DNA of 41,053 nt from a virus (lineage: Duplodnaviria > Heunggongvirae > Uroviricota > Caudoviricetes): positions 1 through 41,053 of the IMG/VR virus record IMGVR_UViG_2617270962_000012; one strand, written 5' to 3'. The translations under genes and the position numbers were made by a program. The stretch's first letter is position 1, and each line of letters begins with the position of its first letter. Below are positions 6,550 through 7,480 of this stretch, one piece after another. A model generated the notes under the pieces. That model searched no databases. It saw only the letters and a list, made by a program, of their open reading frames with translations, and had not been told where the DNA came from.

Positions 6550-7480
6550 ATTAACCGGCTATGTATGGGATGGTTGCGCTGCGTCAGGCATGAAGTTATC
6601 CAGCGTGGCAATTATGGCCCGCCTGGCTGATTTCAGTAATGACGAAGGTGTGTGCTGGCCATCAATTGAAACCATTGCCCGCCAGATTGGCGCGGGGATG
6701 AGCACCGTCAGAACGGCTATCGCACGGCTGGAAGCAGAAGGCTGGTTAACGCGTAAGGCGCGTCGCCAGGGTAACCGCAATGCGTCGAATGTTTATCAGC
6801 TTAACGTTGCGAAGCTTCAGGCAGCGGCATTTTCTCAACTGTCAGATTCTGACCCGTCAAAATCTGACGCATCAAAATCTGACCCGTCAAAATTTGATGC
6901 GTCGAAATCTGGCAAAAAAGCGGGTTTTCACCCGTCAGAATCTGGCGGGGATCCGTCAGTAAAATCAAAACATGATCCGTCAGATAAAAAACCTTCTCGT
7001 CCGGACGCTTCGCAACCGGACACGCAGACGGCTGAACAGGATTTTTTAACTCGCCATCCTGATGCGGTTGTATTCAGCCCTAAAAAGCGCCAGTGGGGGA
7101 CGAAGGATGATTTGACCTGCGCACAGTGGCTCTGGAAAAAAATCATCGCCCTGTACGAGCAGGCTGCCGAATGTGACGGCGAGGTGGTTCGTCCCAAAGA
7201 ACCGAACTGGACAGCCTGGGCAAACGAAATTCGCCTGATGTGTGTACAGGATGGGCGTACTCACAAACAAATCTGCGAGATGTACAGCCGCGTCAGCCGC
7301 GATCCGTTCTGGTGCCGTAACGTGCTCAGCCCGTCGAAGCTGCGGGAAAAATGGGATGAGCTTTCCCTGCGCTTATCGCCGTCCGTCAGCACGTACACCG
7401 AAAAACGCGAGGACCCGTACTTCAAAGCCAGTTACGACAACGTGGACTACAGCCAGATCCCGACAGGATTCAGAGGGTGA
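6539..7480 (+). CDS. replication initiator (lambda O-like) with internal iterons
   Basis: N-terminal HTH-like region, repeat-encoded 'SDSDPSKSDASKSDPSKFDASKS' linker, position after cII-like gene. Confidence 0.6.
   Translation: MSTKLTGYVWDGCAASGMKLSSVAIMARLADFSNDEGVCWPSIETIARQIGAGMSTVRTAIARLEAEGWLTRKARRQGNRNASNVYQLNVAKLQAAAFSQLSDSDPSKSDASKSDPSKFDASKSGKKAGFHPSESGGDPSVKSKHDPSDKKPSRPDASQPDTQTAEQDFLTRHPDAVVFSPKKRQWGTKDDLTCAQWLWKKIIALYEQAAECDGEVVRPKEPNWTAWANEIRLMCVQDGRTHKQICEMYSRVSRDPFWCRNVLSPSKLREKWDELSLRLSPSVSTYTEKREDPYFKASYDNVDYSQIPTGFRG
6838..6990 (+). repeat. iteron array (candidate origin of replication) inside the initiator gene
   Basis: About seven direct repeats of the 'ccgtca(a/g)aatctg' type. 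Confidence 0.55.

Follow-up and report, generated by a model that had tools for sequence, protein, structure and literature searches.

In a stretch of viral DNA of 41,053 nucleotides (nt; IMG/VR virus record IMGVR_UViG_2617270962_000012, positions 1 to 41,053; hereafter the window), a replication initiator gene carries an array of short dyad-symmetric repeats in the middle of its coding region, and this gene and array are the subject of our analysis. Judged by its sequence, the window is an Escherichia coli lambdoid prophage of the SfII/SfIV/Kati type. The initiator gene shares 98-99% DNA identity with genes in phages Kati, SfII and SfIV, where the counterparts are labelled 'replication protein O' or 'primosomal protein', and a prophage gene of E. 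coli AL.H8 matches it exactly (100% identity); a near-full-length copy was found in 1576 of 5426 complete E. coli genomes. It stands in the gene order cI (4628-5302, minus strand), cro-like, CII/CP76 (5625-6194), DUF4222, initiator, PerC-like, followed by genes for a LexA-DNA-binding-like protein of 119 amino acids (aa), RusA, KilA-N, DUF968 and Q (Table 1).

Table 1. Positions in the window of the initiator gene, its repeat array and associated elements, and the gene that follows
Feature	Position	Strand	Sequence	Remarks
Initiator gene (313 aa)	6539-7480	+		Winged helix-turn-helix N-domain, disordered repeat linker, lambda-O-type C-domain, DnaT-like tail
N-terminal winged-helix domain (aa 1-98)	6539-6832	+		Presumed iteron-binding domain
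Unit 1	6841-6853		GTCAGATTCTGAC	
Unit 2	6856-6868		GTCAAAATCTGAC	
Unit 3	6871-6883		ATCAAAATCTGAC	
Unit 4	6886-6898		GTCAAAATTTGAT	
Unit 5	6901-6913		GTCGAAATCTGGC	
Spacer (20 nt)	6914-6933		AAAAAAGCGGGTTTTCACCC	A6 and T4 tracts; from the sequence and a DNA alignment with lambda
Unit 6	6934-6946		GTCAGAATCTGGC	Aligns with the palindrome right of lambda's AT-rich region
A-rich element	6947-6995		two GATCCGTCAG	Copies at 6950-6959 and 6974-6983
C-terminal helical domain (aa 162-280)	7022-7378	+		Homologous to the lambda O C-terminal domain; confident in the AlphaFold model
C-terminal tail	7427-7477	+	KASYDNVDYSQIPTGFRG	Last 9 residues (7451-7477) match the DnaT C-terminus
PerC-family regulator, YfdN-like (164 aa)	7477-7971	+		Pfam PF06069, E=1e-9; PHROG 1324 'transcriptional activator', E=2e-77; yfdN in the Prokaryotic Genome Annotation Pipeline (PGAP)

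The original prediction, made from the sequence without database searches, had placed about seven direct repeats at 6838-6990. Repeats are indeed present there, and the count resolves into six full units and two half-site elements, because the two downstream copies in the A-rich element hold the left half-site only. The six units span 6841-6946 and are 13-bp near-palindromes with the consensus (G/A)TCA(R)A(W)TCTGAC, the first of them perfect (GTCAGA-T-TCTGAC). Five lie in tandem with a 15-bp period and the sixth follows the spacer, such that a repeat search returned 6 in-register copies spaced by 15, 15, 15, 15 and 33 bp. Tandem Repeats Finder described 6848-6911 both as a 15-bp period (4.3 copies, 81% matches) and as a 30-bp period (2.1 copies, 88% matches, score 100), and this 30-bp super-period shows alternating CCG/GCA junctions. 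Searching the window with the pattern GTCARAWTCTGAC and up to 2 mismatches revealed 11 strand-matches at 6 sites, all within 6841-6946, with the same sites matching on both strands as expected of dyads. The expectation in 41 kb was 3.6 ± 2.1, and 11 matches were reached in 0 of 100 shuffles; a chance origin of the cluster is excluded. No site of this kind occurred elsewhere in the 41-kb window, and at 3 mismatches the rest of the window was at background level. A match of 6840-6914 to a eukaryotic miRNA hairpin in Rfam (mir-5880) was sub-threshold (30.7 bits against a gathering score of 97), and we rejected it as an artefact of the tandem palindromes.

The repeats do encode a Ser/Asp/Pro/Lys linker (aa 101-150, SDSDPSKSDASKSDPSKFDASKSG...), as had been proposed, and the six units sit in that linker between the N-terminal winged helix-turn-helix (wHTH) domain and the C-terminal domain. 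AlphaFold placed helices and a wing at aa 3-98, with predicted local distance difference test (pLDDT) scores of 73-90, and predicted aa 103-161 to be disordered (pLDDT <50). The N-terminal domain matched HTH_36 (E=4e-11), GntR and DnaD_N in Pfam at aa 21-89, and Foldseek searches with the full model mostly returned wHTH repressors of the MarR/ArsR type. The description of the gene as 'O-like' holds for its C-terminal domain and not for its N-terminal one: BLASTP aligned the protein with lambda O (E=7e-26, 31% identity over 216 aa), with C-domain homology between aa 172-277 and O aa 176-270, and PHROG 391 ('replication initiation O-like') matched at E=5e-135, whereas the N-domain is of the HTH_36 type, BLASTP found no N-terminal similarity to lambda O, and a Pfam scan at E<=0.01 gave no match to Phage_rep_O (PF04492). 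Sequence searches of the PDB with the protein or with a profile of its C-domain returned MarR-type wHTH matches only, or none, and an NCBIfam search was uninformative. We rejected the label 'primosomal protein I', which close homologues bear in GenBank, as a description of the globular domain's family. The DNA-binding three-helix-bundle domain of DnaT (PF17948) is absent, the globular C-domain has no detectable likeness to DnaT, and it is the tail alone that matches DnaT.

Conservation was assessed in a profile-guided scan of one genome per species, which gave 80 loci across Enterobacterales; unit statistics come from 279 units in 63 non-identical loci of many genera, whose position frequencies reproduced the consensus given above. 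Loci whose initiator begins MS[TV]KL..YVWDG (class A) carry the same motif at the same 15-bp period in E. coli, Pantoea, Citrobacter, Providencia, Buttiauxella, Yersinia, Rahnella and Tatumella, with 3-9 units per locus (mode 4), and the distance from the winged helix to the array is ~35 nt in most loci (29-59 nt among the loci listed). The first Ser of the S-x-S pentapeptide is encoded by TCA in 252 of 279 units and the second by TCT in 220 (and by TCA in 1), while Lys is AAA in 97% of cases in the repeats and in 62% in the rest of the gene, where Ser codons are AGC (33%), TCA (16%) and TCT (9%). Codon identity at conserved residues of the N-domain was ~41% between the window and loci with <85% amino-acid identity, so that synonymous change is close to saturated outside the array, whereas within it these positions are frozen. 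These data support the view that the array DNA is conserved beyond what the peptide needs: two Ser residues with different fixed codons, mirrored in the dyad, are not explained by a peptide repeat.

Repeat type tracks the class of the N-domain and not that of the C-domain. Class-A loci had on average 4.7 A-type and 0.5 B-type units, and loci with a Rac-like N-domain (MSSKLHGLVWEG; class B, ~58-60% identical) had 0.2 A-type and 5.2 B-type units. The class-B units are 15 bp long with a YCAA-NNN-TTGA core, and their pentapeptides vary freely (PSNID, PPTVE, GLTVD, GSTIG, SNIEG) while the DNA core stays. In the G[IV]KGxKLL subclass, for which one locus with DNA was available (L026), the units read TTCAGATTCTGAA, a symmetric change of both outer bases. 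Five loci that combine the same C-domain with an unrelated N-domain (L003, L023, L070, L077 and L079) had zero A- or B-type units. In initiators with unrelated N-domains (SfV/Stx2a/cdtI, mEp460_4F5 and K-12 YdaU), the corresponding position holds other repeats, particular to each; the unit of mEp460_4F5, CATCGGGTCAAAGTGACCTGATG, forms an almost perfect palindrome of 23 bp, and a further duplication of 66 bp is found in cdtI. Mosaic joints fall just past the array: phiNP has nt 2-479 of the gene in common with the window, mEp460_4F5 has nt 443-942, and in dozens of loci the match covers aa 1-168 only. Repeats and N-domain inherited together in this way are what is classically seen with the N-domains of lambdoid O proteins and their iterons.

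The predicted likeness to the lambda origin within the O gene was borne out at the DNA level, where iterons, A/T tract and palindrome are collinear. The spacer corresponds in the alignment to the last part of ori-lambda's AT-rich region, and spacer, sixth unit and next bases (...AAAAAAGCGGGTTTTCACCCGTCAGAATCTGGCGGGGATCC) align with the lambda AT-rich end and right palindrome (...AAGAAAAGATTATTCGTCAGAGAATTCTGGCGAATCC); the two origins are thus collinear and the lambda analogy is partly homology. In coordinates, window 6913-6953 aligns with lambda 39140-39185 (~840-885 of L092), where the palindrome reads CGTCAGAGAATTCTGGCG. Since the spacer and sixth unit align with lambda at this place, the class-A iteron motif may derive from an ancestral lambda-type palindrome. 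The sixth unit was found wherever checked and is kept in alleles whose tandem units are gone; P0018-like alleles retain only ...SESGGDPSV... in the linker. In both phages the origin lies mid-gene in an initiator with a homologous C-domain, encoded after cII in the early-right operon, and several dyad iterons are followed by A/T-rich DNA, much shorter and weaker in the window, and then a palindrome. They differ in the N-domain (HTH_36-type in the window, Phage_rep_O in lambda), in the iterons (13-bp units at a 15-bp period in the window, 18-bp units at 20-24 bp in lambda), in the protein's tail (IPxGFRG in the window, TDWIYGVDL in lambda O), and in that the window has a conserved GATC pair and no P gene. 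On the minus strand, a terminator-like hairpin with a T-run (CGGGTGAAAACCCG CTTTTTTGCC) lies between units 5 and 6 (6934-6921), and could stop antisense transcription or merely reflect the A6/T4 tracts.

Downstream of unit 6, the two copies in the A-rich element combine a 'ccgtcag' half-site with a Dam site (GATC) and lie 24 bp apart; the lowest GC content of the gene, 32.5%, falls at 6960-6999. All classes have GATCC(G/A)TCA ... GATCC(A/G)TCA at this place, spaced 21 or 24 bp apart in an A-rich context. In 75 distinct loci, two GATC sites were present in 56 and three in 11, and the second Asp codon of the element was GAT, which makes GATC, in 70 of 75, in contrast to the iterons, where GAC is preferred (67%). 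GATC is not enriched over the whole window. We suggest that this element may be a part of the origin that unwinds, that is controlled by methylation, or both. Repeats that bind the initiator and adjoin an A/T-rich GATC segment are likewise known from iteron plasmids with Dam-controlled origins (P1 oriR, and oriC with its 13-mers); those origins are intergenic and use RepA/DnaA-type initiators with DnaA boxes, unlike the array here, which is intragenic and lies in a gene that has no DnaA box. In many relatives (phiNP, SfV, LLS and ~20 genome loci) a Dam-type methyltransferase gene directly follows the initiator, an observation that covers window 6950-6983, L002 3369-4250, L004 3567-4220 and L091 3352-4239; the window phage itself is without such a gene. 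The GATC pair, together with neighbouring methylases in relatives, suggests that control of these origins may be linked to methylation.

We consider it likely that the array is both the binding-site array of the initiator and the replication origin of this SfII/SfIV/LLS-like lambdoid prophage. Dimers of the N-terminal domain would occupy the dyads, giving an O-some-like complex of protein and DNA that destabilises the neighbouring A-rich/GATC segment, and the C-terminal part of the initiator would then bring the host replicative helicase, with host DnaB-DnaC captured through the tail ...SQIPTGFRG, a copy of the conserved C-terminal tail of DnaT. Taken as a whole, an origin inside the gene of its own binder combined with recruitment of host DnaB-DnaC via a DnaT-like tail is probably the best explanation of the locus.

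Two other explanations of the array have to be weighed. The repeats might be a by-product of a slippage-prone low-complexity linker, (SDxSK)n, with functionless DNA and an origin elsewhere. The linker is predicted to be disordered, repeats coding for Ser/Asp/Lys-rich linkers are common, and copy number differs widely among close relatives, as slippage predicts; against this, a peptide repeat does not require a 13-bp dyad in each unit, TCA versus TCT is fixed and AAA kept at 97% across genera while synonymous sites in the flanking domain are near saturation, the Rac-like class keeps YCAA-N3-TTGA while its peptide varies, repeat type follows the N-domain, and the window has no further cluster of the motif. 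Dyads, conserved synonymous positions and co-variation with the N-domain class thus mark the repeats as DNA elements, as opposed to the mere peptide repetition that the original prediction had named as its refutation, and we regard the by-product explanation as very unlikely. It is also improbable, in our view, that the dyads are regulatory sites (e.g., autoregulatory operators, an initiator roadblock, or targets of a different winged-helix protein of phage or host, for which the PerC-like product and the LexA-like protein of 119 aa would be candidates). The N-domain does resemble MarR/GntR-type repressors, dyads are typical of operators, and two more wHTH proteins are encoded just downstream. 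However, the sites lie in the middle of a coding region and not at a promoter, and no sigma-70-like promoter was found near the array; their arrangement is collinear with ori-lambda, an origin defined by experiment, and this extends to the segment right of its AT-rich region; they co-inherit and co-vary with the initiator N-domain while the downstream genes vary (PerC in 23 of 52 loci with a GFR tail); and the C-domain of the protein is the replication domain of lambda O.

Several observations nevertheless weigh against an origin at this place. No DnaA box was found within the initiator gene, and the A-rich segment is short and modestly AT-rich (~40 bp, 32.5% GC); the AT-rich parts right of the iterons, i.e., the 20-nt A6/T4 spacer and the ~40-bp GATC stretch, are much shorter and weaker than those of lambda. 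Adjacent 13-bp dyads are only 2 bp apart, and full occupancy is therefore possibly limited by steric hindrance, such that all sites may not be bound simultaneously; the 30-bp super-period hints at alternate occupancy. Copy number is unstable, from ~1 to ~10 units among natural alleles (proteins of 282-338 aa), and common Salmonella and E. coli alleles (P0015, P0018, P0033) keep one or two units; either few sites suffice or these prophages are replication-defective. Copy-number variation was noted in P0007, P0009, P0015, P0018, P0033 and P0047, of which P0033, with one or two units, was seen on 128 contigs. Finally, concerted evolution by slippage, together with shared descent, could inflate codon conservation within arrays; the contrasts between genera and between classes A and B lessen this worry and do not remove it.

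How the helicase would be loaded is a separate matter, as no P-like loader gene follows the initiator; the original prediction had noted this, and the next gene indeed encodes a PerC-family protein. Searches with Pfam and PHROG found no lambda-P, DnaC-like or DnaB-like protein among the window phage genes. In the AL.H8 prophage, which has the identical initiator gene, PGAP annotates neither a helicase nor a loader nor a primase between the integrase and the tail genes. Inspection of the C-terminus for a DnaT- or DnaC-related module, proposed at the outset, revealed that the initiator ends in SQIPTGFRG and E. coli DnaT in SQIPPGFRG, an 8 of 9 identity to DnaT 171-179 by BLASTP. A family profile aligned with DnaT by hhalign over 17 tail columns only (E=2.6e-4, 42% probability), and the DnaT tail is near-invariant among 105 DnaT orthologues. 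Among 52 loci with GFR tails, 49 had no recognisable adjoining loader (BLAST and a Walker-A screen) and 2 had a DnaC-like gene. The PerC-like gene follows the initiator in only 23 of these 52 loci, with methylases or other genes in the rest, and on this count we dropped it as a candidate hidden replication partner.

Other tails accompany a P gene. Tails of the form W..EAWENTL were followed in 8 of 8 loci by a gene for ~240-255 aa, and the one product scanned (L015) belongs to the lambda-P family (PF06992, E=3e-58); L017, with yet another tail type, also precedes a P gene. From the lambda O tail we predicted, before look-up, that a P gene would follow initiators with DWIYG... tails, and this was true in 2 of 2 cases: P0042, which has the domains of the window protein, 76% identity to it and the tail DWIYGIEE..., and P0090. 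The same C-domain thus bears a different tail whenever a P gene is present, which points to the tail, and not the globular domain, as the partner-specific, swappable element. In K-12, YdaU of the Rac prophage ends in VNTVSLPDSAIPPGFRG and matches DnaT 110-178 (E=1e-8, 40% identity), and YdaV, encoded directly after it, is 50% identical to DnaC, mirroring dnaT-dnaC (ydaU is L090 1620-2477 and dnaT is L001 3979-4518). On these similarities the dnaT-dnaC operon looks like a relative of a prophage initiator-loader pair. By gene neighbourhood, the GFRG tail is tied in genomes to DnaC-type loaders, whether of host or phage, in the dnaT-dnaC and ydaU-ydaV pairs and at L006.

Because the phage appears to encode no lambda-P, DnaC-like or DnaB-like protein, capture of host DnaB-DnaC via the tail would be the most likely route. 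Whether the tail itself is the element that recruits DnaB-DnaC (or the primosome) we put at close to an even chance, if slightly below it. Published work on DnaT tells against such a role: residues 154-179 are known only for cooperativity in single-stranded DNA binding (PMC4132743), no direct contact of DnaC with DnaT has been demonstrated (PMC11087952), and a 2026 cryo-electron microscopy study of the preprimosome proposes the DnaT N-terminal domain as the recruiter of DnaB/DnaC (PMC13377028). In that structure the DnaT C-terminal domain was modelled by fitting an earlier crystal structure, and the sections consulted leave the tail unmentioned (PMC13377028). PriA is an alternative partner of the tail, and the genomic associations do not separate DnaC from PriA as the direct contact. 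The array could accordingly be an origin at which loading does not proceed through DnaC via the tail: the initiator might dock through its tail on PriA/PriB, leading to assembly of a PriA-type primosome at the origin, the lambda-O-type C-domain might bind DnaB directly in the manner of a G39P/DnaD-type organiser, or replication might be mostly recombination- or transcription-dependent, as has been proposed for Chi-rich loader-less lambdoid phages. We hold these routes, taken together, to be unlikely though serious, since the GFRG tail is associated in genomes with DnaC-type genes and gives way to a different tail on the same C-domain whenever a P gene is present.

Comparison with other systems places the locus among known designs. 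Gene 18 of P22 and of phage L also has initiator-specific iterons within its coding region, those of phage L being six imprecise 11-bp repeats (bioRxiv 10.1101/2020.10.05.325894); these phages encode their own DnaB-type helicase (gene 12), whereas the window phage has neither helicase nor loader. The product of gene 44 of phage LLS belongs to the N-domain class of the window initiator (78.6% identity), and the gene likewise has 5+1 units, the GATC element and a GFRG tail, with no loader; it differs in a Phg_2220_C-type C-domain and a downstream methyltransferase, where the window has a lambda-O-type C-domain and PerC. LLS plates on K-12 (PMC12315714), and as a plaque-forming phage with a like module it indicates that such modules work in a live phage. 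A 2025 paper counted 34 phages with 'O-only' loader-less modules among 314 lambdoid ones and describes the way they replicate as 'not yet understood'; passages from it on helicase loading, replication proteins and origins mention neither iterons nor the tail (PMC12315714). The DopC-DopE system, a domesticated pair resembling O and P, likewise joins an HTH_36 N-domain to a DnaT-C-terminal-like region in an O-like protein; there a P-family protein follows and the authors found no iterons (Brezellec et al. 2017, PMC5509034), while the window has iterons and lacks P. DnaT-DnaC and the Rac pair YdaU-YdaV (oriJ replicon) share with the window an IPPGFRG-type tail, there on a protein encoded directly upstream of a DnaC-type loader, and YdaU also has internal repeats. 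Unlike the initiator, DnaT has no sequence-specific DNA-binding domain and works at forks with PriA/PriB, and YdaU has a DUF1376 N-domain; the window phage, for its part, has no DnaC paralogue. With that N-domain, K-12 Rac YdaU was rejected as a direct N-domain homologue, and experiments on oriJ are therefore not transferable to the window origin. In the accessible literature we found no earlier description of iterons in SfV, SfII or SfIV; that coverage excludes older subscription papers, which may hold one.

Very probably, as far as comparison of sequences can tell, the array serves as origin to a lambda-type replicon that lacks a loader and whose iteron-binding domain is of another kind. It is a new example and not a new principle, because placement of the origin within the initiator gene is textbook knowledge for lambdoid phages. 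The comparison does define the origin parts of a widespread, unstudied family, which takes in the serotype-converting Shigella phages and phage LLS: a 13-bp dyad consensus, two specificity classes and a conserved GATC element. The loader-less design with a DnaT-type tail is of greater interest, as it bears both on DnaB loading by 'O-only' phages, for which the correlation of tail with loader provides a concrete hypothesis, and on DnaB-DnaC recruitment by DnaT, of which the same tail is the most conserved part without an assigned role; the phage comparison points to this peptide as a candidate for that recruitment. We tentatively propose, as a possibility that we would not yet favour, that IPxGFRG is a short linear motif, portable between proteins, by which a protein bound at an origin or a fork is passed on to a DnaC-type loader (DnaB6-DnaC6). 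If so, loader-less lambdoid phages (the window phage, SfII, SfIV, SfV and LLS) would replicate by imitating DnaT, the DnaT tail (~162-179) would be the element by which the PriA-PriB-DnaT preprimosome recruits DnaB-DnaC, and dnaT-dnaC would have its ancestor in a phage operon for initiator and loader of the ydaU-ydaV kind.

Some features of the surrounding genes deserve mention. The start of the PerC-like gene overlaps the initiator stop codon (translational coupling), and its product has an additional N-terminal winged-helix-like region (PHROG 1687, MarR-type, aa 7-70). Upstream of the initiator, two open reading frames in different frames (6191-6529 and 6370-6549) overlap by 160 nt and each has a strong family match, the 112-aa frame to PHROG 1170 (E=1e-69) and the 59-aa frame to DUF4222 (Pfam, E=9e-19); PGAP calls the DUF4222 gene only. 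On the minus strand at 2946-3509, in an early-left region with yfdP/Q/S, lies a homologue of YfdR (5'-deoxynucleotidase). Published work reports that YfdR of K-12 binds DnaA and that the yfdQRST cluster inhibits initiation on the chromosome (PMC4776307); a loader-less phage with a YfdR homologue may interfere with host initiation as well. In four database proteins (P0001, P0008, P0013 and P0041) the initiator is fused to PerC, LexA-like, DUF968 or Q domains, and these fusions are probably gene-calling or assembly artefacts of short contigs.

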